From the IMG/VR virus record IMGVR_UViG_2737471844_000002, positions 1-64,000 of that record: a stretch of DNA of 64,000 nucleotides; one strand, given 5' to 3'. The notes beneath the pieces were generated by a model, which was not told the DNA's origin, did not search any database, and was given only the letters and a program-made list of their open reading frames with translations. Shown piece by piece: positions 5,610 to 45,291 of the stretch. Both the position numbers and the translations under genes were made by a program. Within the stretch, counting starts at the first letter, position 1; each line of letters opens with the position of its first letter. This stretch comes from a virus. Lineage: Duplodnaviria > Heunggongvirae > Uroviricota > Caudoviricetes.

Positions 5610-5866
5610 ATGACGGCAGAGTACATCAGGGACTGGCAACAACCGCGCCACGCAGTGGGGCGTGAAGGAACGGGGATCCCCGCTCCTGAATCCGCGCTTT
5701 CCTCCTGGCTGGATGCCTACCGGGCAGAGAACGAGCGCCGCCAGGAAATGGCTGATGCGGCGTTCTCCGCCACGCCGCTGGGCAACCTGATTAATAAAAG
5801 CCTGGACGCACAGGAAAAACAGGACAAAACCATCACACTGGCAGGAGACGCCAGAAAACAGACACG
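5610..5866 (+). pseudogene. A: Replication initiator gene A, 5-prime fragment, truncated by the Mu-like insertion
   Basis: The ORF reads in frame into the gene A body at 42741 once 5867..42740 is removed; its apparent stop (5874..5876) lies inside the inserted element. Confidence 0.7.
5862..5866. repeat. Target-site duplication ACACG, left copy
   Basis: Identical 5-mer at 42736..42740. Confidence 0.6.
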
Positions 5867-6022
5867 TGTGGGGTAGTGATCAATTCTGGACTGAGTGAGA
5901 ACAGCCTGGACGAGCCTATAAGCCTTGAGTGGCGCAGGATGTGAGAGATTTTACCGATTCTGGATCGTTTTGAAGAAAATGATCAAAAGTACATTTTTTT
6001 GCGCTCAAATCTGGACTGTTTT
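5867..6022. repeat. Left end with three repeats of core TCTGGAYYG (5884..5893, 5958..5967, 6008..6017): candidate transposase binding sites
   Basis: Repeats read directly; spacing reminiscent of Mu L1-L3 as I recall it. Confidence 0.5.
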
Positions 6023-6171
6023 AATCATTAATGGCAGATAATTGATCGTGTTTTAAATGCTTTTAAAACGGGCTTTATCTGTACCCGTTTCCTTATTTTT
6101 CCTGTTTGGTTTTGTTTTGATGTGGTTGTTGCTGATTAGTTAGCAGCATGCGCCCCGCCAAAACGAGGCGT

Positions 6172-6819
6172 TCATGCTGATTTTTTACTTACAGATTTTG
6201 TTTCTTGCTCCGGTGTGACATCGGTCTGATCACCCGGCGATTGTGGTCGTATATGAGATTCAACAATTCGCAAAATCTCTCTGTCAGTATCTTCGTTTCC
6301 ATGTAATGCTACTCGGATTGCATCCTTAAGTGATTTCCTGATATTCAGACTTTGGATAGCATTCTCTTGCTCCTCCAGCGTGTTAGCGGCTTGTTTCGCT
6401 TGCCTAGTGGGTTGTTGCAGACGTTTTAGGATTCCTTTGATACCCATATCACATATTGCATTTATCAATAGTTCTTTATCTTCTGTGGACGCTCTTTTCA
6501 ATAACTCGTTAGCTAGCTCGTTTGTAATATCGGGAGAAGGCTGCGCTGTTTGGTTTGATAAAGAGTTTGCTGTGGCGGTGAGTTCCTCACCATAAGCGAG
6601 CCAATTTAAACTCACCTGCTCTTTATCTGAGATAAGGCAGGCTATTTTAAAAGAGGGTTCTGTTCCTTTATGGATGTAGTTGTTTAAGGTTGAAGGAGGG
6701 ATACCCCAGTCGCTCGCGGCAGTTCTGACACTGCGCCCACCTATTAGTTTTACTAAACGCTCTCTAAAACTTTCTTTTCCTCGGTCAACTAAAGAAAAAG
6801 CGTCATCATTTTTTGTCAT
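6172..6819 (-). CDS. Mu c-like repressor (DNA-binding)
   Basis: Leftmost gene, divergent from ner; RBS AGGAAAGGA before ATG at 6819; SVRTAASDWGIPPSTLNNYIHKG...VSLNWLAYGE resembles a phage repressor HTH. Confidence 0.6.
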   Translation of the reverse strand: MTKNDDAFSLVDRGKESFRERLVKLIGGRSVRTAASDWGIPPSTLNNYIHKGTEPSFKIACLISDKEQVSLNWLAYGEELTATANSLSNQTAQPSPDITNELANELLKRASTEDKELLINAICDMGIKGILKRLQQPTRQAKQAANTLEEQENAIQSLNIRKSLKDAIRVALHGNEDTDREILRIVESHIRPQSPGDQTDVTPEQETKSVSKKSA

Positions 6820-6952
6820 TTTTCCTTTCCTATTTAACCAATTGATTTTCAATCACAAAACCATATAAAGACCAAAAGCAAAAAGAAAATACAAAGAAAA
6901 GGCTATTTTTGCTTTACATGGGTTACATATGGATCAATACTTATATCCGAAG

Positions 6953-6985
6953 GGATAACACGGCGGTGTTATCCGCACGGATAAC
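6953..6985. promoter_or_regulatory. Operator-like inverted repeat GGATAACACGGCGGTGTTATCC plus extra GGATAAC half-site
   Basis: Read directly between the repressor and ner. Confidence 0.4.
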
Positions 6986-7001
6986 TTTTAAGGGTAACCT
7001 A

Positions 7002-7238
7002 ATGATGGTTAGAAATGAAGTAATGAACCTGGACTGGCACCGCGAGTACATTGTCGCAGCTGTGCACACCAAAGGTTTTACATTGCGTGAACTTTCTGAA
7101 CGCGCTGGTCTAAAAAAAGACTCTTTAAAAAATGCACTGTATCGCTCATGCCCTAAATATGAACGCATCATAGCCGATGCTATTGGTGTGGAACCTGCGG
7201 AGATCTGGCCAAGCCGGTATGCCAGTAAGGCGGCATAA
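7002..7238 (+). CDS. ner: Ner-like DNA-binding protein
   Basis: DWHREYIVAAV...LRELSERAGL...ADAIGVEPAEIWPSRY closely matches the Mu Ner / Nlp family as I recall it. Confidence 0.85.
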   Translation: MMVRNEVMNLDWHREYIVAAVHTKGFTLRELSERAGLKKDSLKNALYRSCPKYERIIADAIGVEPAEIWPSRYASKAA

Positions 7239-9280
7239 TGTTTTATTCAGCCAATGAACTGGCCGGTCTTACTGGTTTGCCCGGTACAGTTCAGGGGGTG
7301 CGCTGGACGCTCAATCGGATCACAGAGACGCACCCGGAATGGAAGCGCAAGCGTGAAGGCACCAAAGCATTCGAGTATCACATCGACTGCCTGCCCGCTG
7401 AAGCGCAGAAGGTTTTACGTAAGCGCCTGACTCATCAGGTTCTGGAAGATGCGCAACTGCCCGCCGTGGTTGAGCAGAAGGCAGTTAAGAACGTCACCAT
7501 TCGCGATGAACTGGAAGTGATGGTCAAATGCCCGGAGCTGGCATTACGCGAAGTTCAGGCACTGACCGACAAGCAAAAGGCCATCGCTGATGCGCGGATA
7601 TTGCTGGCTACCGAAGTGCATAAACTGCGTGAATACGCAGGAATGTCCAGGACGGCAGCGATAAAACACATTGTTGATGGTATCCGCCAGGAGGCTTTGC
7701 CCGAGCGCGTTATTGTGGCAGGTAATACCGCCAATGCCCGACAGGGTAAGCGAACTGGCGTCAGTACAGGGAGTTTACAGGAATGGTATTCCGCCTGGCT
7801 GATGGCGCGCGGTGATGCCAATCAGTTACTGGCGTTACTGTCCCCCGGTCATCATAAGGGGACACCGTGGGAGCAGGTCTGGTGGTTGAGCGATTTCTTT
7901 ATGTTCTATCGCTCATGGAAGCGCCCGACTGTTGAATATGCGTATCGTGAGTTTTCAGTCTGGTGGCATGAAAAACACGCGAATGATGCGGGAATGCTGG
8001 CGGCACTGCCTTCAGTTCACGCAGTAAGACGGGTGTTAAGCAACGTCCCGGTGATTGTTAAGGAGCGTTTCCGCTCCACCGGTTCAGCCTGGCGTTCGCT
8101 CAATCCCTTTGTGCGGCGCGACTGGAGCACATTACCGGTTAATGCGGTATGGGTCGGGGATGGTCACTGTATGAAAATGACCGCGTTTAACCCCCTGACC
8201 GGCAATATTTTCCGGCCAGAGGTGACGCTGGTTATGGATGCGGGGCAGCGCTTTGTTGTGGGCTGGTCACTGTCCCTGTCGGAAAACGTGATAGCCGTTG
8301 CTGATGCGCTGCGTCATGGCATGTCACAGCACGGGATACCGCTGATTTATTACTCCGATAACGGGGGCGGCGAAAAAAACCGGGTGCTTGATGCCGATAT
8401 TACCGGGATTTTGCCCCGGCTGGGTGTGGAGCATCACACGGGGATACCAGGTAACCCACAGGGGCGCGGGGTGATTGAAAGGCTTAACAAGGAAATTCCC
8501 CGGGATGTGGCCCTGAGTTTCCAGACGTACTGCGCAAGGGATGCAGACAAGGAAACCGTAATGATGCAGCAACGGATTATGCAGTCAGCCATTAAGGCCA
8601 CCCACAAAGGGAAAGAACTGACAAAACGGCAGGTTAAGGCGAGGGATGAAATCCCCACCTTTGAGCAACTGATGGCAGCCATAGAGCTGGAGGTCAGACG
8701 CTATAACAACCGGCCACACAGCAGCCTACCCCGCAAAGAGGATGGCGAATATTACAGCCCGGCAGCGTATCGCCGGAAACTGATAAAAGAGCAGAATGTT
8801 GAAATTGATTTCCTGTCGCCGGAAGAACTGCATGAAATGTTCAGGCCGGAAGTGACGCGCAAAACATTTCGCGGGGAAATTCAGTTATTCAACAATATTT
8901 ATTACTCATATGATCTGGCCGCAGAGCACGGGAATGAAGTCAGGGTCAGTTACGATATTCATGATGCAAACAGCGTCATTGTCCGGCGGGCTGATGGCTC
9001 TTATATCTGCGATGCCATCTGGAACGGTAACAAGGTTGATGCCTTCGCTAAACCAGTTATCGAACAAAAACTGGAGAAACGCGTCAGGGGCCGCATTGCA
9101 CGGGCCACGCAGAAAATCGAAGAGGCTAAACGCGAGCTTACCCCGGCTATTACGCAGAAGCCTGACTTTAATCTGGGATATAGACTGGAGCGCCCGGAGA
9201 AAAAGGAAAAAGAAGAACTTTATTTATTCGCATCTGAACGCGAGCGCAATTTAAAGAAAAACGGCACAAACAACCGTTAA
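7238..9280 (+). CDS. A: Mu-type DDE transposase (MuA-like)
   Basis: 680 aa, directly after ner and before the AAA+ B protein; Mu transposase domain organisation. Confidence 0.9.
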   Translation: MFYSANELAGLTGLPGTVQGVRWTLNRITETHPEWKRKREGTKAFEYHIDCLPAEAQKVLRKRLTHQVLEDAQLPAVVEQKAVKNVTIRDELEVMVKCPELALREVQALTDKQKAIADARILLATEVHKLREYAGMSRTAAIKHIVDGIRQEALPERVIVAGNTANARQGKRTGVSTGSLQEWYSAWLMARGDANQLLALLSPGHHKGTPWEQVWWLSDFFMFYRSWKRPTVEYAYREFSVWWHEKHANDAGMLAALPSVHAVRRVLSNVPVIVKERFRSTGSAWRSLNPFVRRDWSTLPVNAVWVGDGHCMKMTAFNPLTGNIFRPEVTLVMDAGQRFVVGWSLSLSENVIAVADALRHGMSQHGIPLIYYSDNGGGEKNRVLDADITGILPRLGVEHHTGIPGNPQGRGVIERLNKEIPRDVALSFQTYCARDADKETVMMQQRIMQSAIKATHKGKELTKRQVKARDEIPTFEQLMAAIELEVRRYNNRPHSSLPRKEDGEYYSPAAYRRKLIKEQNVEIDFLSPEELHEMFRPEVTRKTFRGEIQLFNNIYYSYDLAAEHGNEVRVSYDIHDANSVIVRRADGSYICDAIWNGNKVDAFAKPVIEQKLEKRVRGRIARATQKIEEAKRELTPAITQKPDFNLGYRLERPEKKEKEELYLFASERERNLKKNGTNNR

Positions 9281-9298
9281 TTTAAAAGGTATTTAATT

Positions 9299-10192
9299 AT
9301 GAGTTTAATTACGCAATTAAATGACGTAATGGCCCGTCGCGGCTTTACGCAGACCCACGTTGCCCGTGCTATTGGTCGTAGCAGCGCCGTTATCAACCAG
9401 TATTTGCAGGGCAAATATCAGGGCGATATGGCTGATATTGAAGAACGCATTTCTGCCTTTGTGACCCGTGAGCGGGAAAAGGAAAACAGCCGCCGTATTA
9501 AAGCGAAATTTGTTGCCACCGGTATGGCTGCCAAAGGACTGGAAGTGCTGGCCTATGCTCACCTGGAATGTGAAATCTGCGTACTGTATGGCGCGGCAGG
9601 TCTTGGCAAAACAATGATTCTGCGTGAATACGCCGCCAGAAACCGGGATGCGGTCCTGATTGAAGCTGACCCGGGCTATACAGCCAGAACACTGCTTGAG
9701 GAGCTGTGCCGCCAGCTGGGGGTAAAAGTTCGCGGCAATATCCACGAACTGATTGATGCATGTGTGCGAGAACTGCGTGATTCCGGTCGCCTGCTGATGG
9801 TGGACGAGGCTGAACTGCTCCCCTATCGCGCACTGGAGGTTCTGCGCCGTCTGCATGACAAAGCGGGTATCGGGATTGTCCTGGCGGGTATGCCACGCCT
9901 TCTGATTAACCTCAAGGGACGTCGCGGTGAGTTCGCCCAGTTATACAGCCGTGTGGCGCTGGCGCTTAACCTGGGTGATACGCTGGCGCAGGAAGATTTT
10001 AACCAGATAGCCACCGGGCTGATGCCGGAAGCAGCAGAGCCGGAAATCAGCGAGGCGCTTTATACACGTTCGCTGGGTAATGCCCGCCGCCTGTTCAAAC
10101 TGGCGCGTGGTGTGTACCGGATTTGTGATATCAGCGATGCGCCGGTCAGTGTGCAGGCCATTGATAAATTCGCAGAAATGTTAATTCACTGA
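9299..10192 (+). CDS. B: Transposition ATPase (MuB-like, AAA+)
   Basis: Walker A GAAGLGKT, Walker B LLMVDEAE, N-terminal HTH. Confidence 0.9.
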   Translation: MSLITQLNDVMARRGFTQTHVARAIGRSSAVINQYLQGKYQGDMADIEERISAFVTREREKENSRRIKAKFVATGMAAKGLEVLAYAHLECEICVLYGAAGLGKTMILREYAARNRDAVLIEADPGYTARTLLEELCRQLGVKVRGNIHELIDACVRELRDSGRLLMVDEAELLPYRALEVLRRLHDKAGIGIVLAGMPRLLINLKGRRGEFAQLYSRVALALNLGDTLAQEDFNQIATGLMPEAAEPEISEALYTRSLGNARRLFKLARGVYRICDISDAPVSVQAIDKFAEMLIH

Positions 10193-10431
10193 TGGAGAAT
10201 AAGACGATGGACAAGCAGACCATTAACGCCGTCCGTTCCCGTGCCCGTGTGGCCATTCACACCACCGGCGGTCGTGTAACGGGACAGCATCACCGTTTAC
10301 CTGTGGTTTATGCCTGCCCGCCCGTGGGTGGTCCTGTATGGCCGGTAACGGAAATCGTCCAGACATTCAGCGGCCTGCGCCGCGTGGTGAAAACGTCCTG
10401 TATCGACGGCTGTACCGTCGTATGGCAATGA
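10192..10431 (+). CDS. Hypothetical protein
   Basis: Six-frame ORF; start uncertain (ATG at 10207 possible). Confidence 0.4.
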   Translation: MENKTMDKQTINAVRSRARVAIHTTGGRVTGQHHRLPVVYACPPVGGPVWPVTEIVQTFSGLRRVVKTSCIDGCTVVWQ

Positions 10432-10443
10432 GAGGAAATCAGA

Positions 10444-10659
10444 ATGGCGGTTAAATTAGAAGTAATTATCTATACCAATGAAAAAGGCGCGACTTTAACC
10501 CAGATTACAGGGAGTTATTCGAAGGACGGCACTTCCGAAAGGGAGTTTCAGGTGGCAACAGGATTACATGATGTTATCAAGGAAGCACTGAGAAATGACT
10601 ACAACGGCGTGAATATTTTTTCTGAAAACGTTGCGCCTCGCGCACATAACACAAATTAA
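10444..10659 (+). CDS. Hypothetical protein (71 aa)
   Basis: Six-frame ORF. Confidence 0.45.
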   Translation: MAVKLEVIIYTNEKGATLTQITGSYSKDGTSEREFQVATGLHDVIKEALRNDYNGVNIFSENVAPRAHNTN

Positions 10660-10688
10660 TCTGTAAATATCACTGAGGTAATTTAATT

Positions 10689-11333
10689 ATGACGACTGAA
10701 AATAAAGTTAAGCAATACACGAAAACTCAAGCGCCTGAAGGTTACTGGGTGGATGCCCGTGGCGTAATGACACCTGAAAGCCTTATCAAAGATATTGACC
10801 GCGACCGCGAGCAGCTGGTCGGTGAGCTTGTGGAGATGGTGATTGCTGCCTCCGCCTCACTGCGTGAACTGAAACTGCGTGCGTTTGGTGATATTCAGGC
10901 GTTTATTGACCTGTCGGCGGAGAAATACGGCGCTGTGAAAGGCGGCAAAAAAGGCAATATCACGCTTTACAGCTTTGACGGGCGTTACAAGATTCAGCGC
11001 GCCATGCAGGACCGTATCGCGCTTGATGAACGCATTCAGACCGCGAAGGCACTGATTGATGACTGCCTGGCTGACTGGACGGAAGGAGCGCGCCCTGAAA
11101 TTAAAGCCATCATCAGTGAGGCATTCAGCACGGACAAGGAAGGCAACATTAACACCGGGCGCGTTCTGGCTCTGCGTCGTCTCGATATTACGGAGGAACG
11201 CTGGGATAACGCCATGAAACTGATTGGTGAAGCCGTCCAGGTGGTTGGCAGCAGAAGCTATATCCGCGTGTATGAGCGCGTCGGTGATTCCGACGAATAC
11301 CGCGCAATCCCGCTTGATATTGCAGGGGTTTAA
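10689..11333 (+). CDS. Conserved Mu-like early protein (DUF3164-like by recollection)
   Basis: 214 aa; position in the Mu semi-essential early region. Confidence 0.5.
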   Translation: MTTENKVKQYTKTQAPEGYWVDARGVMTPESLIKDIDRDREQLVGELVEMVIAASASLRELKLRAFGDIQAFIDLSAEKYGAVKGGKKGNITLYSFDGRYKIQRAMQDRIALDERIQTAKALIDDCLADWTEGARPEIKAIISEAFSTDKEGNINTGRVLALRRLDITEERWDNAMKLIGEAVQVVGSRSYIRVYERVGDSDEYRAIPLDIAGV

Positions 11334-11334
11334 C

Positions 11335-11568
11335 ATGCATCAGGATATCAAAGAGTACAGAGCCGGAAATAGTTGCGCGGCGTATTCGCTGGGCGCGTCC
11401 AGAGCAGAACAACGCGGCGATTATGACGAGGCAGAAAAACTGTGGCGCAAGGCAGCGCAAAGCCCGTGTAGCACCCTGCGCCGCATCTGGGCTGAACATC
11501 GTGCGGAGTTCTGCGCTAACGCTCACCTGAAAGGATGGAAGCCGCCTCATGAACGCGAAGAACTTTAA
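11335..11568 (+). CDS. Hypothetical protein (77 aa)
   Basis: ORF trimmed to ATG at 11335. Confidence 0.4.
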   Translation: MHQDIKEYRAGNSCAAYSLGASRAEQRGDYDEAEKLWRKAAQSPCSTLRRIWAEHRAEFCANAHLKGWKPPHEREEL

Positions 11569-11740
11569 TAAGCAGTATCCGGTAGGGGCTCGCTTCATGC
11601 ACACTGCACATCCTGCGTTGCGTGGTGGTCGTGTAGTGAAAACCGTTTCACCTGCCAGAGATTTTAAATGTGGTTGTGTGGTTGAAATTAATGTCGAGCC
11701 TTATTTCGTAAAAGTCGAAACACTGAAAGCACCGCATTAA
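11549..11740 (+). CDS. Hypothetical protein (63 aa)
   Basis: Six-frame ORF. Confidence 0.4.
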   Translation: MNAKNFNKQYPVGARFMHTAHPALRGGRVVKTVSPARDFKCGCVVEINVEPYFVKVETLKAPH

Positions 11741-12018
11741 TTTAATTTGTTTTTAATTGTTATTTAAAACAGGCGTAAACCCGCCAGGGCTGGCTTACGC
11801 CTGAATCTGAGGAAGTTTATTTATGAATATTGCTAAGCAAAAAAAATTCGCCCACGAAATTAATCTGACAATCGTTTGTTTTAATCGTCTTGCGACCAGT
11901 TCTCAATCGACAGCAGATGTTCATCCAGCGCCGCAGCCAGAACGAACTCCCCACGTTCCTGAAGGCCGTGCCGGAAGTTGCGTAATTCAGAATTCAGGAT
12001 GCTGAGGTTCAGACGACC

Positions 12019-12729
12019 ATGAAAGATAAATACATTGCCAAAATCAAAAAACTGTTACGCCTTGCCAGAGGAACATCAAGCCCGGAAGAAGCCGCTAACG
12101 CTATTGCAAAAGCCCAGGCTTATATGCGCCAGCATGGCATCAGCGAAAACGACGCGGAATTGTTCGATATTCAGGAGGCTGCCAGCGCGGGTGCCCCCAG
12201 TAATGCTGTGATTTCGCCGCGCTATATGCATGTTCTGTGTAGTCTGGTCAGCAATGCCTTCGGGGTTGAATGTTATATCTCCTTTAAATATCTGGAATCT
12301 GGTTCACTCAAACGTTACGTGCGTTTTTATGGTCCTGACAGCCGCCCGGAAATTGCGGCCTACGCGTTTGATGTGCTTTCCCGTCAGATGATGGCAGAGC
12401 GCAAGAAATATCAGGATAAACACTGCAAACGTTGTGGTCCGTCCACGCGGGTGGCCCGTGGCGACCAGTTCTGCGAAGGCTGGGTCTTTGGTGCCCGTGA
12501 TGTCATTGCGGTGTATGACGTCTCCCCGGAAGAAAAAATCCGCCTTGAGCTTTACAGAAAGAACCTGTACAGCACTAAGGGGCTGCGTGACGGGGATATG
12601 CGCACAGCTAAAGCGTGCCGGGGTGCAGAGTTTGCCGCTACTGCCGGTTTTATCGCCGGGAAAAACGCCAGACTGCATCAGGGGGTTAATGGTCAGAGCA
12701 ACAGACCGCTGGCACTGGGGAGGGGATAA
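12019..12729 (+). CDS. Conserved Mu-like early protein (DUF2786-like by recollection)
   Basis: N-terminal IAKIKKLLRLARGTSSPEEAANAIAKAQ motif. Confidence 0.5.
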   Translation: MKDKYIAKIKKLLRLARGTSSPEEAANAIAKAQAYMRQHGISENDAELFDIQEAASAGAPSNAVISPRYMHVLCSLVSNAFGVECYISFKYLESGSLKRYVRFYGPDSRPEIAAYAFDVLSRQMMAERKKYQDKHCKRCGPSTRVARGDQFCEGWVFGARDVIAVYDVSPEEKIRLELYRKNLYSTKGLRDGDMRTAKACRGAEFAATAGFIAGKNARLHQGVNGQSNRPLALGRG

Positions 12730-12731
12730 CG

Positions 12732-12959
12732 ATGGCTTTTAAACTTCTCAGTGTTACCGAAGCAATATACCAGCCGCCCGGAGAACGCCACGAATACAGG
12801 ATGAATGACGGCAGCGCGGCGGTTGAGTTTCCCAAATATCCGGGGGCTTCCCGGTGGCGGTTCTATGACAGTGTGGGACGCCGGATTATTAAAAGAACTG
12901 TGCACAACGCCATGAAAGCCGCCGTAGAGCGTCATAAAAGGAGGTTTAACTGTAAATGA
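12732..12959 (+). CDS. Hypothetical protein
   Basis: Six-frame ORF. Confidence 0.45.
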   Translation: MAFKLLSVTEAIYQPPGERHEYRMNDGSAAVEFPKYPGASRWRFYDSVGRRIIKRTVHNAMKAAVERHKRRFNCK

Positions 12960-13186
12960 ATATTGAGTTTTATGAACGCAATGGTACCGCAGTTATCACT
13001 ATCTCCTGCTGGTTCTGGGAATTTCGCCGTTACTGGCGGGTTGTGGATGCGGCTTTGTTTGTGGCTCCTGACGCGATACACGAAAGCAGTGGCGGCATTT
13101 TAATGATAACCGTCATCACCGGTAAAACGGTCCCGATGTTACGGGCGTTTAAAGTGGCAAAACAGGAGGCTGGCAATGGTCATTGA
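12956..13186 (+). CDS. Hypothetical protein
   Basis: Six-frame ORF overlapping neighbours by 4 nt. Confidence 0.45.
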   Translation: MNIEFYERNGTAVITISCWFWEFRRYWRVVDAALFVAPDAIHESSGGILMITVITGKTVPMLRAFKVAKQEAGNGH

Positions 13187-13466
13187 TAAAACGATAACGA
13201 TAGATATAGCCATGAATGCAGGCATCGCTCTTCTCGGTTGGTGTTACATCATGCTCCGCGCCGGGATGTGGCTGTCCCTTGTATTCCTGAAAACATGGAA
13301 TAAGCACCGTAAACAGACGCAGCAGCAGAAGGCAATGAATGCGTTTTTTGAGGCCTTCGATATCGACAGCATAGAGCCAGGAGAACCAACCCGCGTTATC
13401 CCCGTAGGTGATGTCGTGATTTTGGTATACCGAAGTGAAAAAAATAAACAGGAGGCGGCGCAGTGA
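13176..13466 (+). CDS. Hypothetical membrane protein
   Basis: Hydrophobic stretch IAMNAGIALLGWCYIMLRAGMWLSLVFL. Confidence 0.45.
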   Translation: MVIDKTITIDIAMNAGIALLGWCYIMLRAGMWLSLVFLKTWNKHRKQTQQQKAMNAFFEAFDIDSIEPGEPTRVIPVGDVVILVYRSEKNKQEAAQ

Positions 13467-13627
13467 ACCAGCAAACCAGAATAAGCGATAAGAGCCTGAC
13501 CAGACTGATTGCCGATGCGGACAAGGTGCTGGAGCGAAACACCCCCGTTGCCGATGAGGAATGGTGGCAGGATTTCCGGGCCGCAATGCTGGAACTTCAG
13601 GAACGTCGTCGGGAGGAGTTGAAGTGA
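13463..13627 (+). CDS. Small hypothetical protein (54 aa, GTG start)
   Basis: GTG overlaps upstream stop; below the ORF-track cutoff. Confidence 0.3.
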   Translation: MNQQTRISDKSLTRLIADADKVLERNTPVADEEWWQDFRAAMLELQERRREELK

Positions 13628-13887
13628 GTGAATTAAAGTGTCGAATTAATGGCAATCAGATAGAACCGTGTGCGGTACTGGCAAAAGCACTCGAATATGG
13701 AAATCCAGCCTTTAAGAGTAAAGGCATATTTATCCCGGAACGCGTGAATATAAACACCGGCGAGCCAGGCTTAGACATTGCTCAAATTCACTCCGGCCAA
13801 TATGTCGGTCGTGGTGTTGCCATGTGTTTTTGCCCGTTCTGTGGTGAAAGTCTGAAAACATGGAAAAAGGAGGCAACCAGTGAGTGA
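13624..13887 (+). CDS. Hypothetical protein with CxxC pair
   Basis: GTG start overlapping upstream stop; CFCPFCGES motif. Confidence 0.4.
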   Translation: MSELKCRINGNQIEPCAVLAKALEYGNPAFKSKGIFIPERVNINTGEPGLDIAQIHSGQYVGRGVAMCFCPFCGESLKTWKKEATSE

Positions 13888-14506
13888 AGTTAACTATCAG
13901 GCACTGCGTGAGGTGGCAGAGGCCGCGAAGGGGGATACGACGTGGCAGAACCTACAGGCTTTTCATGCTGCGGCTACGCCGGAGGTTGTGCAGGCGTTGC
14001 TGGATGAAAACGAAAGACTGTGTCGAGATCTGATAGCTCGTAATGGTGAGATTGAAGGGCTTCGGGAGTGGGCAGAAGAACTGGAGGCACGGGAGGTGGC
14101 TTTGCCAGTAGCGTCATGCATTGTTGAAGATGGATGCATGTGTGTTGATGGGTTCAGTGAGTATGTAGGTCACTCGCTGCCTGATGGAATGCATGAGCTT
14201 TATGCTGCCCCGCCAGCGCCCGTAGTGCCTGCATCACTGGAATCAGAGCCGGTGGCGTGGACTGATGAAGAGGAACTGCGCGATGTCAAGCAGTATGGTC
14301 TCGGTGAGATATTTCAGTACCCGCCAGATAAATACGCAGACTCGCGTCGTGTAATCCCGCTGTATCGCGAGCTGCCAGTGCCGGTAGTGCCGGATGAAAT
14401 GTATTGGCAGGATGCGCCAGTTGAAGGCAGCAGCAAAGCTGCTGCATACGCTACAGGTTGGAACGCTTGCCGCGCTGCCATGTTTAAAGGAAAAGGAGGT
14501 GCGTAA
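13880..14506 (+). CDS. Ea22/Ead-like protein
   Basis: NYQALREVAEAA...WQNLQAFHAAATPEVVQALLDENERL. Confidence 0.5.
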   Translation: MSEVNYQALREVAEAAKGDTTWQNLQAFHAAATPEVVQALLDENERLCRDLIARNGEIEGLREWAEELEAREVALPVASCIVEDGCMCVDGFSEYVGHSLPDGMHELYAAPPAPVVPASLESEPVAWTDEEELRDVKQYGLGEIFQYPPDKYADSRRVIPLYRELPVPVVPDEMYWQDAPVEGSSKAAAYATGWNACRAAMFKGKGGA

Positions 14507-14678
14507 TGCGTGTCGCGTTTATCGGTTTATTACCATACCCGACTCGTTTTTGGGCTTCTGCGTTAATGACAAAGCCGCATGTCCTGATGGCTGACAGCAT
14601 CATCCCTGCACCGAAACGCCGTACAGGCATTGCGGCGGCGAGACGAGCAGCAAAGAAACGCAGGAGAACAAAACGATG
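14506..14678 (+). CDS. Small hypothetical basic protein (57 aa)
   Basis: ATG overlaps upstream stop (TAATG); below the ORF-track cutoff. Confidence 0.3.
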
Positions 14679-16074: not shown

Positions 16075-16084
16075 CCTAATAGCC

Positions 16085-16110
16085 GCCCCTGCCATGCAGG
16101 GGCTTTTTTT
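16085..16110 (+). terminator. Rho-independent terminator
   Basis: GCCCCTGC-CAT-GCAGGGGC hairpin followed by TTTTTTT. Confidence 0.7.
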
Positions 16111-36356: not shown

Positions 36357-37006
36357 TGTGGGACAAGGTTAATCAGCGCATACAGCAGGCACTGGCCGCC
36401 GTTCGCCAGGCATTCAGGGTGGTGACCGGTACGGTGGACAGTTCGACCAAAGTACAGCTACTTCAGCTGAACGGGCTGGCAGGCGAACAGCTGGACGGTG
36501 CGGAGTATTTTCAGCATTACGGCCTCACCACATCCCCGCCGCCCGGCTCGATGGGTATTGCCGTTCCGCTGAATGGTAATACCTCCCATACCGTCGTCGT
36601 GGCCACAGAGCACGGCGCATATCGCCTGACGGAACTGAAACCCGGCGAGGTGGCGCTGTATACCGACGAAGGCGCGAAAATCGTACTGAAGCGCGGGCGG
36701 GTTATTGAGCATGAATGTGATGTTTATCGCGTGAAATGCAAACGCTATGAGGTTGAGGCAGAGGAGAACGCCGCATTCACGACACCGTTACTGACAGTCA
36801 GCGATAAGCTGACTGTGGAAGGTAAAATCACCGGCAACGGTGGCATGGCCATCCGTGGAGGCAAGAAATACGCTGCCACCTTTGAAGGCAATATCAACCA
36901 TGTGGGCGGTGTGATTACCTCCGTTGACGTCACCATTAATGGCGTTAAAATCGGAACACACAAACACGATACCCCTCACGGCATATCCGGCCTGCCGCAT
37001 AATTAA
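36353..37006 (+). CDS. Baseplate spike protein (V-like)
   Basis: Position; resembles the P2-like V protein at 59666..60247 in its C-terminal part. Confidence 0.6.
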   Translation: MMWDKVNQRIQQALAAVRQAFRVVTGTVDSSTKVQLLQLNGLAGEQLDGAEYFQHYGLTTSPPPGSMGIAVPLNGNTSHTVVVATEHGAYRLTELKPGEVALYTDEGAKIVLKRGRVIEHECDVYRVKCKRYEVEAEENAAFTTPLLTVSDKLTVEGKITGNGGMAIRGGKKYAATFEGNINHVGGVITSVDVTINGVKIGTHKHDTPHGISGLPHN

Positions 37007-37059
37007 GTGCTGAACACCCTCACCTGATTCTGACCTGTCCATGCTGCCAGACTGGCGGC

Positions 37060-37410
37060 ATGGACCAGACGATTTCACCTGCAACCGGCGACTACGAACG
37101 CCGCCGGATTTACACACTCCATAACGCGGTTTATCTGCGACTGGCGACACCGCTTGGCAGTTACTGGGCGGATGCGTCGCTGGGGTCACGCCTGCACGAG
37201 CTGAAGCGGGAAAAAGACGTTCCCCGTGTTCACAGACTGGCGGCGCAGTATGCCAGCCAGGCACTTCAGCCACTGCTCGATGACGGGCGGGCAAAATCCA
37301 TTACCGTTGACACGAAAGCGGGCCAGCGCGGCTGGCTGTTGCTGTTAATCACCGTCACGGATAACGCGGGCACACCGCAGACGTTTGAACACCCTGTGAG
37401 GATTATGTAA
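37060..37410 (+). CDS. Baseplate wedge protein (W / gp25-like)
   Basis: Position and size. Confidence 0.55.
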   Translation: MDQTISPATGDYERRRIYTLHNAVYLRLATPLGSYWADASLGSRLHELKREKDVPRVHRLAAQYASQALQPLLDDGRAKSITVDTKAGQRGWLLLLITVTDNAGTPQTFEHPVRIM

Positions 37411-38489
37411 TGCCGTTTCCTGTTCCGGGCGTTGCTGAAAACACAGAACGCCAGCTACGTGATATCGCTAACGCCCTGCCGGGAGAAACCATAGACACCG
37501 GCGCTGACAGCGATTACCGCATTCGTGCAAATGCTGTATCCGGCGTGGCGGAGGGGCTTTTTATGCATCAGGGATGGATCCTCCGTCAGGTGTTTCCTGA
37601 CACGGCAGACCCTGAATATCTGGAGCTGCACTGTCGCACGCGCAATGTTTTTCGTAAAAAAGCAACGGCCTCATCCGGTCCGGTGGTGATTACCGGCACA
37701 CCCGGTAAGACGCTGCCAGCCGGTGCGGAAATTCGTGGTGAAGGTGTCAGCGTGGCCACCACAGCAGACTGCACCATCGGTGATGAAGGCAGCGCAGAGG
37801 TGACGGTAAAAAGCACCGCTACGGGGGCACAGACGAACGCATCCGCGACGCAGACGGCAACGCTGGTCAGTCCGCCGGAAGGCATCAACAGCACGGTGAC
37901 GATTAAATCCCTGACCGGCGGAACGGACAGGGAAAGCGACGCTGACCTGCTGGCGCGTTATCTGGATATTCTGCGCAGGCCGCCCGCTGGCGGTAATAAA
38001 TATGATTACAAACGCTGGGCGCTGGAGGTGGATGGCGTTACGTCTGCATATGTGGAGCCATTGCGCAGAGGGAAAGGTACTGTTGATGTGGCCATTACGT
38101 CAGCCAATGACATCCCCTCGCAGGAACTGATTAATGCCGTGCTGGCACATATTGAGGAAGTCCGCCCGGTGACAGCGAAGGACACGATGGTACTGGCTCC
38201 GACGAAAAAAGCCGTTGATTTCGTTGTCCGGGTAAAAACCAGCGGCCTGACCGTTGAGCAGATAAAACCGCAGATAACTGGCGTTATCACGGATTTCATG
38301 AACCGACTGGCGCCGGGGCAGGAATTAATTATTTCACAACTGGAAACCCAGATTTCACTCATTTCCGGTGTGAGTGACAGAAAAATAATCACGCCTGACG
38401 GGAATGTAAAAGCCGTGATTAATGCGTCAACGTGGGAATGGTTGCGTCCGGGGGATATTGATATTCAGCCATTTCCCCGGGAGGGTTAA
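37410..38489 (+). CDS. Baseplate J-like protein
   Basis: Position and size. Confidence 0.7.
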   Translation: MPFPVPGVAENTERQLRDIANALPGETIDTGADSDYRIRANAVSGVAEGLFMHQGWILRQVFPDTADPEYLELHCRTRNVFRKKATASSGPVVITGTPGKTLPAGAEIRGEGVSVATTADCTIGDEGSAEVTVKSTATGAQTNASATQTATLVSPPEGINSTVTIKSLTGGTDRESDADLLARYLDILRRPPAGGNKYDYKRWALEVDGVTSAYVEPLRRGKGTVDVAITSANDIPSQELINAVLAHIEEVRPVTAKDTMVLAPTKKAVDFVVRVKTSGLTVEQIKPQITGVITDFMNRLAPGQELIISQLETQISLISGVSDRKIITPDGNVKAVINASTWEWLRPGDIDIQPFPREG

Positions 38490-38492
38490 TTC

Positions 38493-39065
38493 GTGAATAC
38501 AGTCGATTTATTCCGCGCCATGCTGCCGCCGGTCAGTTATGACCTGAACGGGAAATATATTTCCGCGGAGCTGACAGCCGAGGCTAACGTCATGGAGGCC
38601 GTGAAGGCCTCAGCGGCGCGCGTTCTGGCACAAATCACCCCGTTGCAGGCATCGATGACGCTGTCCGACTGGGAGCGCGTGTACGGTGTTGTCCCCCGTG
38701 AAGGGGCAACCCAACAGGAGCGGCGGCAGAACATCCTGGTAAAAATGGCGGCAACGGGCGGGCTGTCCATTCCCTATTTTAAAAATCTGGCCGCAAGCCT
38801 GGGATACACCATAACGATAACCGAACCACGAGCCTTTCGCACCGGGGTAAATCGTTGCGGTGACCGTCTGTTTATCCCTGAAATGCGCTGGGTATGGCAG
38901 GTCAATGTTATTGGTGCAAAAACGCCGGTATACCGTTTCAGAACGGGCGCATCTGCAACAGGTGAGCCGCTGACGGCCTTTGGTGAATCCATTTTAGAAA
39001 ATACCTTTAAAGACCTTAAACCGGCTTTTACAGACTGTTATTTCACGTATGAGGATAAGCAGTAA
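38493..39065 (+). CDS. Tail protein I-like
   Basis: Position and size. Confidence 0.6.
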
Positions 39066-39994
39066 TGCAGAATTTAATTCCTCCGGTGAATACGCCGGAT
39101 CAATTGTTTCACGATGGTGACCCCACTCAGGGCATTGAGGGCACTATTGTTTATGCTGAACACATGAATAATCAGCAGGGAGCCATTCGTGACCTGCAAC
39201 AGGAAATTATTAATGTGCTCCGTGCGGCTGATATATCACCGGACCCGAAGAAACAAAATCAACTGCTTGATGCTATATCGCAATATGTCGGGAAAAAAGT
39301 TCCTGACGCATCATTAACGAAGAAGGGCATCGTTCAGCTCAGTAGCGCAACAGACAGTGATTCAGAAACGGAAGCAGCCACACCAAAGGCAGTAAAATCA
39401 CTGGCGGAAAAAATAACAGAATTGCAGGGAGTGGCTTTACCGGTAGGTACCCCAATACCGTGGCCGTCTGATTCAGTGCCACCCGGCTATGCCTTAATGC
39501 AGGGGCAGAGCTTTGATAAAGGCTCTTACCCTAAACTTGCAGCTGCCTACCCATCCGGGATTATCCCGGATATGCGGGGCTGGACAATTAAGGGTAAGCC
39601 TGCCAGTGGTCGTGCTGTATTGTCTCAGGAGCAGGACGGCATTAAATCACACGCCCACAGTGCCAGTGCATCCAGTACGGATTTGGGGACGAAAACCACA
39701 TCGTCGTTTGACTACGGAACTAAATCAACAAATAACACAGGTGGTCATAATCACGGTGTTGGTGAAAATGTTTCTGTCAGTGCCGGCAGTGGCAAAACAG
39801 TAAATATGAGTACCGGCACCGTAAATCTTTACACCAAATCTGCTGGCGCTCATGCGCACACTGTCGGCATTGGTGCTCATGTGCACACTGTTGCTATTGG
39901 TTCACACGGACACACCGTCACTGTTAACGCTACTGGTAACGCAGAAAACACCGTCAAAAACATCGCATTTAACTATATTGTGAGGCTTGCATAA
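39065..39994 (+). CDS. Tail fibre protein
   Basis: [21 protein letters not shown] collar motif; Gly/Thr/His-rich C-terminus; segment shared with the P2-like H gene. Confidence 0.8.
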
Positions 39995-40569
39995 TGACTT
40001 TTAAAATGAGCGATAAAGCACGGACCATGCGTGTATTTAATTTTCTTGAAGATACAAAAGAATTTATCGGCAGTGGTGACGCTTATATACCGCCTCATAC
40101 CGGATTACCCGCAAACTGTACGGATATTGTACCGCCGGAAATTCCCGAAGGTTTTACGGCAATGTTTGATACTGCTGACAATTCATGGCGTCTGGTAGAA
40201 GACCATCGGGGGGAAACAGTTTATTCAACGGAAACCGGAAATGCAGTCCCGATATCTGAACTGGGGGAACTTCCTGAAAATGTCACATTTATTGCACCAG
40301 ACGGAGAATACCAGCGCTGGGATGGCAGTCAGTGGGTGACGGATGAAGAGGCGAAGCGTGATGCGCTGATTAATCAGGCGGCAGAAAAGAAAACCAGCCT
40401 GCTGAAACAGACTGGAGAACAAATCGCAATCTTACAGGATGCTGTTGATTTTGGTGAAGCAACACCAGAGGAACAGGAGCAACTGACAGCCCTCAGAAAA
40501 TTACGAATAAAGTTAAATCGTATTCAACCGGAAAATGCACCAGATATCGACTGGTCAGACTTTGAATAA
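39994..40569 (+). CDS. Tail fibre assembly chaperone
   Basis: Directly follows the fibre gene (ATGA overlap). Confidence 0.7.
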   Translation: MTFKMSDKARTMRVFNFLEDTKEFIGSGDAYIPPHTGLPANCTDIVPPEIPEGFTAMFDTADNSWRLVEDHRGETVYSTETGNAVPISELGELPENVTFIAPDGEYQRWDGSQWVTDEEAKRDALINQAAEKKTSLLKQTGEQIAILQDAVDFGEATPEEQEQLTALRKLRIKLNRIQPENAPDIDWSDFE

Positions 40570-40614
40570 ATTCCACAGCCGCCAGCAGGCGGCTTTTTAT
40601 CATTCAGAGGCTCT

Positions 40615-42039
40615 ATGTCTGTATTAATTTCAGGGGCGCTGATTAATGGCGCTGGCGTTCCGATGGCGGAATGCAAAATTTATTTAGATGCACTGGTTAA
40701 TACCAGTGAAGTGGTCACTGAGTCATTTGCGGTTATTGAAACCGATGCGGCGGGACAGTATGCCTTTGAAGCACAAAAAGGCAAATACACCGTACACATC
40801 AAGCAAAAGAACGGCCCCAAGTGCTGCGTGGGTGACATTTCGGTTTACGACGACTCAAAGCCCGGCACGCTGAACGACTTTCTGACTGCCCTTGATGAAA
40901 GCGATTTAAAGCCGGATGTAGTGAAACGCTTTGAGGAACTGGCGCAACAGGCACAGCAGAGCGCGGAAGCCGCCGCTGGCAGCGAACAACAGGCAGGACA
41001 ACACGCCACTGATGCACAGCAGATTAAGGCCGACTGTCAGGCGCTGGCGAAAGACGTACAGCAGAACGCCGACGCGGTTGCGGAGGGTAAACAACAGGTC
41101 GAAAATCTGGTCTCACAGGTTGAGAATGCCGCCGAGGAGGTAAAAAAGGACGCTGAAGCTGCTAAACAGGCCGCATCTGATGCAGAGCATGTCAGGGAGG
41201 ATATTGACACCGCGTTATCTGCGACACTGAAAACGGCGAATCGTTTATCAGAGCTGGCTGATGAAGGTGAAGAGGCTCAGCAGGAATCCCGTGATAATCT
41301 TGGACTGAAAAGCGCTGCCACAATGACGCCACAGAGCGACATTCGTGACCGGACTGAAGGTCGTCTGGCGACACCTGGCGCATTTGGTTTTGGGCATATT
41401 TTTTTGCCCGCAGAGCGGATCCGTTTTAACACAGAGGATGATTTTCTGTCCTGGGTAAGGAATGCGACGCCGGGTGAATATTTTGTTGAGGGTGGCAGTA
41501 AAATCATATCCGGAGGTGTGTTGTTTAACGGGGTGGTCAGCATCCGGTGGGTTGAGGCACGCAATAATCCACCGGAACCGCGATATACATCAAAGGCCAT
41601 TATTTTCTACGGTATCAATGGCGATGTTTATTACAGCCGCTACTGGACAACAGGTAATGGTTATCTGACTGGCTGGGAAAATCTGAAAATTACCTCACAG
41701 GACATTATCTCTCTTCTGTCCGGTATTGCTCCCGGTACCACGGACGGCTGGTACGGTGCAGGCAGTCTTGTACTGGCGGCTTATAACGGTAAGGGAGACG
41801 CAGACACCGACCGCCGGATAAAACGCGGTTACAGCTATCCGGGGTCACGCCTGAGCGCGGTTGAATTTATGTGTCACGGCACGACCGGTAGCGGGGTTGG
41901 ATATAACGGCAGCGTTTCCGTATATGTGCGGAGTTCTGGTGGTGGTATGCCGGGGTCATATCGGGCACTGTCAGGTGATGGGCTCGGGTCTGCCGGGTCA
42001 GCCAGTGTCATGATTGGTTTGTTCATACGTATTGCGTAG
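40615..42039 (+). CDS. Second tail fibre-like protein
   Basis: Long Ala/Gln-rich coiled coil then Gly-rich C-terminal domain; followed by a second chaperone. Confidence 0.55.
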   Translation: MSVLISGALINGAGVPMAECKIYLDALVNTSEVVTESFAVIETDAAGQYAFEAQKGKYTVHIKQKNGPKCCVGDISVYDDSKPGTLNDFLTALDESDLKPDVVKRFEELAQQAQQSAEAAAGSEQQAGQHATDAQQIKADCQALAKDVQQNADAVAEGKQQVENLVSQVENAAEEVKKDAEAAKQAASDAEHVREDIDTALSATLKTANRLSELADEGEEAQQESRDNLGLKSAATMTPQSDIRDRTEGRLATPGAFGFGHIFLPAERIRFNTEDDFLSWVRNATPGEYFVEGGSKIISGGVLFNGVVSIRWVEARNNPPEPRYTSKAIIFYGINGDVYYSRYWTTGNGYLTGWENLKITSQDIISLLSGIAPGTTDGWYGAGSLVLAAYNGKGDADTDRRIKRGYSYPGSRLSAVEFMCHGTTGSGVGYNGSVSVYVRSSGGGMPGSYRALSGDGLGSAGSASVMIGLFIRIA

Positions 42040-42046
42040 GTGTTTT

Positions 42047-42613
42047 ATGGAAATAAAACGCATCGAAAATGCGCGTTATCTTGAAAATGGCGCGATTGAC
42101 TGCGGGGTGTTGTTTGATGGCATGGATGAACCGGTTCCGTATACGGCAACTGCCACGGATACAGCAGAGACAGGGCAGCGAGTCTGGCAGGAGCTGCAAA
42201 GTGGGAGATGGGGAGAAATAACGCCGTTCACCGTCACGCCAGAGATGCTGGAAGCAGCAAAAGCAGCCAAACGCCGGGAAATTGAAGCATGGCGCACAGA
42301 ACAGGAGGCGCAGCCATTCATTTTTGAATGGAACGGCCATAGCTGGAACGGGGGACCGGATTCTATGGCCCGTCTTTACCCGGTGGTGATGTCAGCAAAA
42401 TCAGTCACGGCACGGAAATCTATGGTATGGGGTGATGCGGAAAATCAGCAGGTAAAGTTGTCAATGCAACAACTGGATGAACTGCTTACTGCAATGGTTC
42501 AGGCGCAGGTCGATCGCAATGACGAGATTTATCGCCGTCAGCGGGAGATGAAGGAAACACTGGCGGGGCTGGATGACCTGAACACCATCAGAAGTCTGCC
42601 CATCAGTGAATAA
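42047..42613 (+). CDS. Second tail fibre assembly chaperone
   Basis: Position after the second fibre gene. Confidence 0.65.
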   Translation: MEIKRIENARYLENGAIDCGVLFDGMDEPVPYTATATDTAETGQRVWQELQSGRWGEITPFTVTPEMLEAAKAAKRREIEAWRTEQEAQPFIFEWNGHSWNGGPDSMARLYPVVMSAKSVTARKSMVWGDAENQQVKLSMQQLDELLTAMVQAQVDRNDEIYRRQREMKETLAGLDDLNTIRSLPISE

Positions 42614-42649
42614 AAACGTAAGTGGTCAAATAAAGTGCTGTATCACCTT

Positions 42650-42735
42650 ATTTTGCGCTTTATTCTGGATTTTTTTTATTATGTCAACCGTTCAAAATAA
42701 AGCGCTAAATAGTCCAGAAAAAATCGCGAAGTTAC
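42650..42735. repeat. Right end of the Mu-like element with inverted copy of the terminal motif (AGTCCAGAA at 42711..42719)
   Basis: Reverse complement of the right terminus matches the left terminus in register at 17 of 26 positions when the right terminus is taken as 42736. Confidence 0.5.
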
Positions 42736-42740
42736 ACACG
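42736..42740. repeat. Target-site duplication ACACG, right copy
   Basis: Identical to 5862..5866. Confidence 0.6.
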
Positions 42741-45291
42741 CGGCGCGGTGGATGAAGCCATGGCCTCGCTGCGCCTGCTGCCGTCCTATCTGCGCGATCC
42801 GCTTATTCGCCACCTCTCCTTCCTTCGCAAAAAACAGGAAGCCGATCGCCGGAAAGGCAAAAAGAGCTGGCAGGCGGAACGCTATGCACGCGGAACCCTG
42901 CGCAAAATATTCGAACGTCTGGATCGCACTGACGGACGCTGGCTGACACCGGGTTATCGCTCCCTTGCCGGACGCGAACGCCTGGACGATTTGCTTTACC
43001 TGCCGCAGCTCAACAAACACCAGATACAGACGTTGGCCACCATGACGGCGGCGATGTTCAGCAGCACCTTCGAAAAGCTCTGCGATGGCTTTGGCGCCAG
43101 AGATGGCGAGCTGACCATGGATGTAATGTTGAAGGCTTACCGGATGCTGGCTCGTATCGCATTACGCCTGCACATCATGCCGCCACATTACGAAGCCCTG
43201 AACAAGAGCGAACCGGATACGGAACTGCTGCCGGGCGCAATCCTTCGCCTGACCTGTGCGGACTGGTGGAAACGCAAACTGTGGCTGTTACGTTGCGAGT
43301 GGAGAGAAGAACAACTCCGCGCCGCCTGTCTGGTTTCCAGAAAAACATCGCCTTATCTGAGCCAGGACGCGTTAAGCGAGTTTCGCGCACAGCGCGAGAA
43401 AACACGCGATTTCCTGAAAAGTTTCATGCTGGAAAACGAAGACGGGTTCACGATTGATCTCGAGACAGTGTATTACGCGGGAGTAAGTAACCCGGTTCAC
43501 CGTAAGGCAGAAATGATGGCCACCATGAAGGGGCTGGAACTTCTGGCCGAAGCCCGTGGTGACAAAGCGGTGTTTCTGACTGTCACCTGCCCGTCAAAAT
43601 ACCACGCAACAACGGAGAACGGTCATCCGAATCCCAAATGGAACGGGGCCACCATGCGCGACTCCAGCGATTACCTGGTTAACACGTTTTTTGCGGCGGT
43701 CCGCAAGAAACTGAACCGCGACGGCCTGCGCTGGTATGGCATCCGCACGGTGGAGCCTCACCATGACGGCACCGTGCACTGGCATATGATGGTCTTTGCC
43801 CATCCGGAAGAAATCGACACCATTGTGTCCCACACCCGCGATATTGCCATTCAGGAAGATCGTCACGAGCTGGGCGATGATATTACTCCGCGCTTTAAGG
43901 CGGAGTATGTCGACGGCTCAAAAGGCACGCCAACCAGCTACATCGCCACCTACATCGGAAAAAACCTGGACAGCCGCGCCGTGGATGGCATCGCCCCGAA
44001 AACAGGCAAACCACGCGTTGACCACGAAACCGGAAAATCAATGGCCGAGAGCGTGGAGCGCGCCATCGGCTGGGCGCGCCTTCACCGGGTCCGCCAGTTC
44101 CAGTTCTTTGGCATCCCCTCCCGTCAGGTGTGGCGTGAACTGCGCCGCCTTGCCAGCCAGATGGCACGCAACCCGGAAGGCCCGCAACGGCTGAAGGACG
44201 ACGCAATGGATGCGGTACTCGCTGCCGCTGATGCCGGGTGTTTTGCCTCCTACATTGAAAAACAGGGTGGCGTACTTGTTCCACGCAAGGACTACCTGAT
44301 TCGCACCGCCTACGACCTCGCAGATGAGCTGAACGATTACGGCGAACAGAGCGTACAGATTTACGGGATCTGGTCACCACTCATCGGGGAATCCTCCCGT
44401 GTGTGCACGCACCCGGATAACTGGAAGCTGGTAAGACGTAAACCGGAAGCGGAAGACAGCGCCCGCGAAAATTGTTTTGACCTTCAGGGCGGCCCTGCCG
44501 CCCCTTGGACTCGTGGCAATAACTGTCCCCGTGTACAGGAAACGGACAACAACGGGACAGAACAGCCGGAAGAACGGCCAGCACCGTGGCCGCAGCTTCC
44601 TGACGGCGTTGATGTGGATGAATGGATGCGCTCACTGAAACGGCACGAACGCCGGGCGCTGATGCGTTCGCTGCGTGACAAACAGGCCAAAAACAGCAGT
44701 GATGAAATGCAGAACTGGACACAGAGCCGCAAACAGCCACAGCCTTTGCCTGATAAACACGAATTACTCGCTAAAGAATGGCGGGAGTCTGCCGAATCTC
44801 TCGGCCTGCATATCGGTGAACAGCAGATGCAGCACCTGTTACGGGGCGGCAGCCTGTACGTTGACGGCAGCATCATTGCACCGCAGGGATTTGAAATTGT
44901 ACGCAAACCGGATACCCGCCCGGACAGCCGAATCACGCAGCTCTGGCAGCGCCTGAGCCGTAATCACGGCGTAAGCAGCACGGAGATCCGCCATAACCCG
45001 GTCGCCAGCTATCTGGCACAGCTCGGGGCATCAGACCCCGAAGCCGCCGCACGCCTGGCATCCACACTTCAGCAGGACCAGAACACCATGAAAACACCCG
45101 TTACCGTGCTTTCTGACATGCTGCGCGCCATTCGTGACGCAGAGCACGCACAGAGAATCAGTGAAACCACTGAACACGCCCGCCGCAAAGCAGACCTGCT
45201 GCGGGGTAGCCTGACCAGTGGCAACAAAAAACAGACAGAAACGGGATTCACAAATCCCGCAAATGAGCAAAAAACGCGCCGCGATATATGA
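42741..45291 (+). pseudogene. A: Replication initiator gene A (P2 gpA-like rolling-circle endonuclease), 3-prime part separated from its 5-prime end by the Mu-like insert
   Basis: TVTCPSKYH and VEPHHDGTVHWHMMVF motifs match my recollection of P2 gpA; frame continuous with 5610..5866. Confidence 0.8.

Follow-up and report, generated by a model that had tools for sequence, protein, structure and literature searches.

A Mu-like transposable prophage within replication gene A of a P88-like prophage of Escherichia coli, flanked by a 4-bp target-site duplication

The stretch of DNA analyzed here, called the window, comprises positions 1 to 64,000 of the virus record IMGVR_UViG_2737471844_000002 (IMG/VR; Caudoviricetes). 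It almost certainly contains a Mu-type phage of 36,870 bp integrated at codon 86 of replication gene A of a P88-like prophage in E. coli. The Mu-like transposable prophage occupies positions 5867..42736 on the plus strand, starts with TGTGGGG, ends with GAAGTTACA (termini TGT...ACA), and lies between two copies of the 4-bp target-site duplication CACG (5863..5866 and 42737..42740). Its ends were set by comparison with independent insertions of related elements (C5, Z1323CEC0011, E423, 48956, JNE21-009 and the AF60 plasmid), and its genes were assigned with Pfam. The host was taken to be E. coli because every one of the complete E. coli genomes compared (5426) has a match to some part of window 1..2300. 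A preliminary description, made from the sequence alone, had proposed that a transposable Mu-type prophage splits gene A of a P2-like prophage, and both the alignment to phage P88 and the continuity of the joined gene in 1004 E. coli records bear this out. A Mu-like phage inside a prophage is a published kind of event; the pairing with a P88-type gene A as target was found in none of the 5426 complete genomes.

Joining position 5866 to 42741 restored, as had been foreseen, a single open frame of 935 codons, which reads ...KQTRGAVDEAMASLRLL... across the junction. The 5′ fragment of gene A (5610..5866, plus strand) holds codons 1-85 plus 2 nucleotides and was delimited by its frame and by alignment to gp16 of P88; its open reading frame (ORF) ends inside the insert, as the preliminary description had read it, at the TAG 5874..5876, three codons in, and encodes a product of 88 amino acids. 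The 3′ fragment (42741..45291, plus strand) holds codons 86-935, and the ORF that is left there (42748..45291) has the 847 codons previously counted. The joined product aligned as one protein with P88 gp16 (residues 1-935 versus 1-940, 96% identity), and the homologue of E. coli DSM 103246 gave the same value. At the DNA level, the flanks without the insert formed with P88 one 5212-nt alignment, which spans the junction at 96.6% identity. Furthermore, the 1004 E. coli records and P88-type phages contain a 258-nt joined sequence without a break; the records listed all place it under a gene called replication endonuclease or replication protein.

The domain content of the reconstructed protein is that of a replication initiator. 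Pfam Phage_GPA matched residues 179-498 (E = 7.6e-131), entirely within the 3′ fragment. This fragment also encodes the HUH-type motif HWHMM and the tyrosine motif SYIATYIGKN, and both HWHMM and YIATYIGKN align with P2 gpA. With this domain, these motifs and the 96% identity to P88 gp16, the reconstructed A protein is a gpA-type HUH/tyrosine rolling-circle initiator. Since its gene is split in the window, the full-length protein cannot be made.

The preliminary description had suspected that the true start of gene A is internal, given a joined product of about 935 amino acids. This suspicion did not survive the comparison with the relatives. The length is normal because the P88 lineage has a longer, 940-amino-acid class of A protein: the gene of P88 gp16 (5957..8779 in NC_026014, 2823 bp) is annotated as a 940-amino-acid replication endonuclease. 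In P88 the gene starts 6 nucleotides past an upstream gene of 366 bp, and the same spacing is found in the window (5238..5603, then 5610). Position 5610 is therefore the true start of gene A, the same as the start annotated in relatives. An extreme version of the internal start would make the left ORF (5610..5876) an independent small gene and let gene A begin near 42748, so that nothing essential is split. P2 gpA, with 761 amino acids, is indeed shorter than the joined 935. However, P88 and the RefSeq E. coli records annotate one 940-amino-acid protein from the equivalent of 5610, and the related genomes have an uninterrupted 2823-bp gene from that point, with no stop after the left fragment. 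P2 gpA from residue 42 onwards also aligns with the joined protein from residue 77, straight through the junction (30% identity, residues 42-740 versus 77-795). In addition, a weak N-terminal match (E = 0.15) places WQQPRHAVGRE (residues 9-19) against WNAPREAVGRE (residues 29-39 of P2 gpA), with WxxPRxAVGRE in common. We consider the chance that the left ORF is a separate gene to be practically negligible.

Two neighbouring observations concern the state of gene A in other strains. The nearest uninterrupted copy, that of strain TUM9757 (NZ_CP128931, 2568578..2571399), is annotated as frameshifted, and a stop codon interrupts the copy of strain 503025. Resident P88-like prophages may often carry an inactivated A gene.

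The junctions read ...AAAACAGACACG/TGTGGGGTAGTGATC... on the left and ...CGCGAAGTTACA/CACGCGGCGCGGTGGATG... on the right. The pentamer ACACG is present at 5862..5866 and at 42736..42740, where the preliminary description had placed a 5-bp flanking repeat. The sites stand and the length does not: the duplication is CACG, and the element itself ends with the A at 42736, which is outside the duplication. ACACG as such is unremarkable, with 57 occurrences on the plus strand of the window versus about 62 expected. The junction is non-random because the flanks abut exactly in P88 and in the 1004 E. coli records, not because of the repeat.

The length of the duplication was judged from six independent insertions, the window copy and five relatives. 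The flanking 4-mers are CACG in the P88-like gene A of the window, AATC in yigG (Z1323CEC0011), GGTG in alx (E423), CCCT in rhsC (48956), CGAA in another prophage (JNE21-009) and TGTC in a plasmid methyltransferase gene (AF60). All six show a perfect 4-bp repeat, the TGTGGGG start and the GAAGTTACA end. The copy of C5, the closest relative, could not be used to define the right end, which is truncated there by ISEc12. The presence of an A at the fifth position on both sides in the window and in Z1323CEC0011 would fit a canonical Mu duplication of 5 bp, ACACG, with an element that ends in ...GTTAC. However, the fifth base is mismatched in the four other insertions (T in E423, G in 48956, C in JNE21-009 and G in the AF60 plasmid, each versus A). 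The empty sites, checked at alx and gene A, point in the same direction: the E423 flanks joined with a single GGTG are 100% identical over 200 nucleotides to intact alx, in which GGTG is present once and preceded by T. The TGT/ACA symmetry and the equal spacing of the TTCTGGACT motif also favour an end at ...ACA. A 5-bp duplication is thus very improbable, and the 4-bp duplication is well supported for this Mu-like clade.

The same length was found in a more distant group. In GenBank LC727881, an Sp18-like phage, 4 bp are annotated as a "duplication due to insertion of Mu", and of the possible joins the 4-bp one alone is 100% identical to uninterrupted phages. This match ruled out a 5-bp duplication combined with a TG start for the LC727881 insert, which begins with TA, not TG. 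The scar regarded as diagnostic of transposable prophages is 5 bp (Mu) or 6 bp (B3) (PMC8705779), and in the literature searched we found no statement of a 4-bp duplication for transposable phages; the SuMu paper and the Sakai prophage paper hold no information on the length. The 4-bp duplication departs from this diagnostic scar, and pipelines that expect 5 or 6 bp would misplace the ends of the clade by one base, which also happened in the preliminary description. The enterobacterial Mu-like clade formed by the element and the Sp18-like phages may be a distinct lineage with a transpososome of 4-bp stagger.

Both termini carry a repeated motif. The left, attL-type region (5867..6030, plus strand) has TTCTGGAY at 5884 and 5958; the right, attR-type region (42640..42736, plus strand), which ends in ...GAAGTTACA, has it at 42663 (plus) and 42712 (minus). 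The window contains 11 matches versus 3.2 expected, and four of them lie within 100 bp of the element ends. This clustering is consistent with putative transposase-binding sites.

Exact termini also bear on whether the nesting could be an artefact, that is, a Mu-like prophage from elsewhere mis-joined into the P88-like prophage during assembly. Prophage repeats can confuse assemblers and only a single window was read; nothing specific points to such an error. On the other side, both junctions fall at the exact element termini known from other genomes, and the 4 bp repeated on either side of the insert occur just once at this site in relatives. The exact 88-amino-acid product of the left junction was moreover found on two independently assembled Logan contigs, one of them from SRR2239581, with the same neighbouring genes on either side, which argues against an assembly chimera. 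We regard a chimera as extremely unlikely, and we retain a genuine integration.

The genes of the insert are those expected of a transposable phage, and the complete Mu-type set that had been noticed in this block was recovered with Pfam. A CI-type repressor gene (6172..6819, minus strand; Phage_CI_repr, coordinates mapped from the C5 annotation) diverges from the early operon. The latter starts on the plus strand with a Ner-like regulator (7002..7238; HTH_35, E = 2e-25), followed by a MuA-type DDE transposase of 680 amino acids (7238..9280; HTH_Tnp_Mu_1, PF02316; rve, PF00665; Mu-transpos_C, PF09299) and a MuB-type AAA+ target-capture ATPase of 297 amino acids (9299..10192; AAA_22, TniB). A DUF3164 protein, GemA (15077..15574, plus strand; GemA) and the Mor activator (16174..16641, plus strand; Mor) complete the early and regulatory genes identified by Pfam. 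Two holins, a GH108 endolysin, a DUF1804 protein and a DNA methyltransferase are encoded at 17065..19966 (plus strand; Pfam and C5 annotation).

The late morphogenesis operon (19911..42613, plus strand) was assigned by Pfam and by ORF lengths as in relatives. Its head genes encode TerL, the Mu portal, F, G, protease I and the major head protein gpT; its tail genes encode the sheath, tube, tape measure, DNA-circularisation protein gpN, baseplate protein gpP and gp45-48, and two tail-fibre/chaperone sets are also present. The Pfam matches include Portal_Mu, Phage_Mu_F, Mu-like_Pro, Mu-like_gpT, DNA_circ_N, GpP and Gp45-48. The ORF lengths of the element equal those annotated in relatives, with no insertion sequence (IS) and no truncated ORF. 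The gene set is complete, and the element appears structurally intact. With DDE transposase domains, a MuB-type ATPase, TG...CA ends, this gene set and a length within 36-39 kb, it is a Mu-type phage in the broad sense.

From established Mu biology, the event can be pictured as follows. The MuA-type transposase and the MuB-type ATPase would have joined the TG...CA ends to the target with a 4-bp stagger, and repair of the gaps would then have produced the CACG duplication. The element would now be kept in the lysogenic state by its CI-type repressor, and induction would lead to replication by transposition and to headful packaging.

The term "Mu-like", used in the preliminary description, holds for gene order and domains and does not extend to close kinship with Mu. 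The transposase is only 22% identical to MuA, and the MuB-like ATPase 32% identical to MuB over 214 amino acids. Among phage transposases, the closest come from Pseudomonas VW-6B (49%), Klebsiella ST405-OXA48phi1.1 (45%) and the Yersinia vB_YpM phages (45%), followed by the Sp18-like inserts in Shiga toxin (Stx) phages (44.5%) and SuMu (40%). When the first 6.1 kb of the element were compared by "distant" blastn with 50,697 phage records, Mu was absent among the matches listed, and no sequenced phage exceeded about 68% identity over 18% of this segment. An attempt to name the element through DNA similarity to sequenced phages thus gave no adequate match, relatives being found at the protein level alone. 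"Mu-like" describes the plan of the phage, not a close relationship.

The plan shared with Mu includes the divergent repressor, Ner, A and B, Gem and Mor, portal, F, G, I and T, the contractile tail with gpN, gpP and gp45-48, the TG...CA ends and a size of about 37 kb. In contrast to Mu, the duplication is 4 bp instead of 5, the repressor is of the CI type, and neither an invertible G segment with Gin nor mom was seen. Because of the 4-bp duplication and the lack of sequence relatedness to Mu, the element is not a Muvirus in the strict sense; neither the 5-bp duplication nor the relatedness that defines Muvirus was found.

By sequence, its close relatives are rare E. coli prophages, and its more distant ones the VW-6B, Sp18 and SuMu group. 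In the 5426 complete E. coli genomes, just nine records contained the left end of the element. Between 81 and 92% of the element aligns with the prophages of the same group (C5, Z1323CEC0011/0014, E423, 48956, JNE21-009 and the AF60 plasmid), at segment identities of about 73-97%, with most long segments above 90%. The first 30 nucleotides or so are identical in all of them, and the right terminus ...GAAGTTACA is found in every copy that keeps its right end. With the C5 copy, identity is complete (100%) over the first 304 bp. The 4-bp duplication is common to the group, but the insertion sites differ. The C5 copy carries an IS3 insertion and the ISEc12 truncation, neither of which is present in the window copy, and segments 13533..14661, 15560..16085 and 39396..40603 are unique to the latter. 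The window therefore provides an exactly bounded reference copy for a poorly described group of E. coli Mu-like phages.

The Sp18-like phages (Nakamura et al. 2023, PMC10132054; LC727881, LC727895) are likewise nested in E. coli prophages and share with the element the gene architecture and, in LC727881, the 4-bp flanking duplication. They differ in the left terminus (TATAGCG... versus TGTGGGG...) and in the transposase, as given above. Furthermore, in the Sp18-like case a packaging/portal gene of a lambdoid prophage was hit, whereas here it is the replication initiator of a P2-type prophage. A second phage-in-phage case for the group of the element itself is the JNE21-009 relative (NZ_AP041814, 1143514..1178770), which is embedded in a different prophage, of the myovirus type, where the genes for DNA circularisation and for the baseplate adjoin it on either side.

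We then considered what the split would mean for the host prophage. It would leave an 88-amino-acid N-terminal stub and an 850-codon remainder that lacks both a start and a promoter. With gpA, its cis-acting rolling-circle initiator, split in this way, the P88-like prophage is expected to be incapable of replication. The composite of about 73 kb would also be too large for a P2-type head. The integrase, the immunity gene, the late genes and the IetAS cargo of the host prophage would stay in place. P4-type satellites are independent of P2 genes A and B, and because of this the capacity of the host prophage to act as a P4 helper might survive. The nesting is in this sense a clean, fully resolved case of one temperate phage that would inactivate another by transposition, and it illustrates how a P2-type prophage that looks complete can be out of action unnoticed and still supply defence cargo.

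Several points weigh against this picture of an intact phage that has grounded its host prophage. The loss of replication follows from the split gene and from P2 biology, and the activity of the element from its gene content, so both are to be read as predictions. Read-through from the late operon of the Mu-like element could in principle yield a truncated A protein that starts at the internal ATG 42760. The interval from 42613 to 42760 showed no terminator-like site, but this ATG has no evident Shine-Dalgarno sequence either. The window stops at 64000 inside the tail genes, and the right-hand third of the host prophage lies outside it. Lastly, base 5862, one nucleotide outside the 4-bp duplication, is A in the window versus G in P88, DSM 103246, FORC_031, 503025 and TUM9757. 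The join is unaffected by this difference, and the exact 23-mer with A at 5862 had no match in metagenome_contigs or genome_contigs. The A may be a private single-nucleotide polymorphism or a change associated with the insertion. A systematic repair or insertion scar was rejected, as the E423 flanks are 100% identical to intact alx.

The repeated presence of such elements in prophages and plasmids raises the question of whether the location is random. The clade might prefer prophages or mobile DNA, or insertions might be favoured as they cripple a competitor phage. This proposal is compatible with an integration into gene A and differs in its cause alone. In its favour, the JNE21-009 relative lies inside another prophage and others lie in a plasmid and in an Rhs element; in closed genomes of Shiga toxin-producing E. 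coli, 6 of 10 Sp18-like Mu-like phages were found within mobile elements, including Stx phages (PMC10132054). However, the numbers are small and may include clonal copies, insertions in dispensable DNA are those that survive selection, other copies lie in the ordinary chromosomal genes yigG and alx, and no sequence preference is visible among the six target 4-mers. We consider real target choice or competition between phages unlikely. Apart from the 4-bp rule, the event is what one would expect of random Mu-type integration, and nestings of this kind are already in the literature. If the targeted or competitive explanation were true, the initiator of the P2-like prophage would have been knocked out while the host retains the immunity of this prophage and its IetAS defence genes.

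Between 2354 and 62772, apart from the insert and one variable hotspot, the host prophage and P88 are collinear, with identities of 85-97%. On this collinearity it is assigned to the P88-like phages (Peduoviridae, genus Xuanwuvirus), which are "P2-like" in the broad sense. Shared with P88 are the 940-amino-acid class of A protein, parM/parR and the P2-type late genes; the integrase/immunity region (1..2354), the hotspot cargo and the interrupted gene A differ. P2 is more distant than P88, as seen from the identity of 30% between the A proteins. In TUM9757, which is 100% identical over window 1..2300, the same prophage is found at the same chromosomal site with gene A uninterrupted. This stretch, which includes the integrase, is covered to at least 80% in 119 of the 5426 complete E. 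coli genomes.

At the left end of the host prophage, the integrase gene (596..1720, annotated as 596..1570 in relatives; minus strand) was identified by Pfam Int_N and Phage_integrase and by its 100% identity to the TUM9757 prophage. A helix-turn-helix (HTH) immunity repressor is encoded where P2 has gene C (1620..1964, minus strand; HTH_3, HTH protein in TUM9757). Late genes of the P2 type (50811..62772) were defined by a 12.4-kb alignment to P88 at 97.4% and by the P88 and TUM9757 annotations; they encode the portal, large terminase, scaffold, capsid, small terminase, head completion, lysis and baseplate/tail proteins. No tRNA gene was found in the window.

The hotspot (46693..50352) lies between A/parMR and the portal gene and carries IetAS in place of P88 gp19-22. 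The IetA and IetS genes of this anti-phage defence pair (47022..50305, plus strand) were detected by PADLOC (IetA, 3.6e-89; IetS, 6.6e-41) and by Pfam AAA and Peptidase_S8, and the adjacent IetA AAA ATPase and IetS S8 protease make up an IetAS system. Next to gene A, ParM and a small partition protein are encoded as in P88 gp17/gp18 (45368..46643, plus strand; StbA_N, ParM, P88 annotation). Such a ParM/ParR-type plasmid partition module beside gene A, as in P88, is unusual for an integrating phage of the P2 type.

Two minor features of the Mu-like element may be added. An extra ORF of 167 amino acids between gemA and mor (15571..16074, plus strand) is absent from the relatives compared and gave no Pfam or PADLOC match; it has no assigned function and may be a moron, that is, an accessory phage-carried gene. 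At 39065..42613, the two tail-fibre/chaperone sets are arranged in tandem on the same strand without an invertase or invertible segment, whereas Mu and Sp18 have invertible segments.

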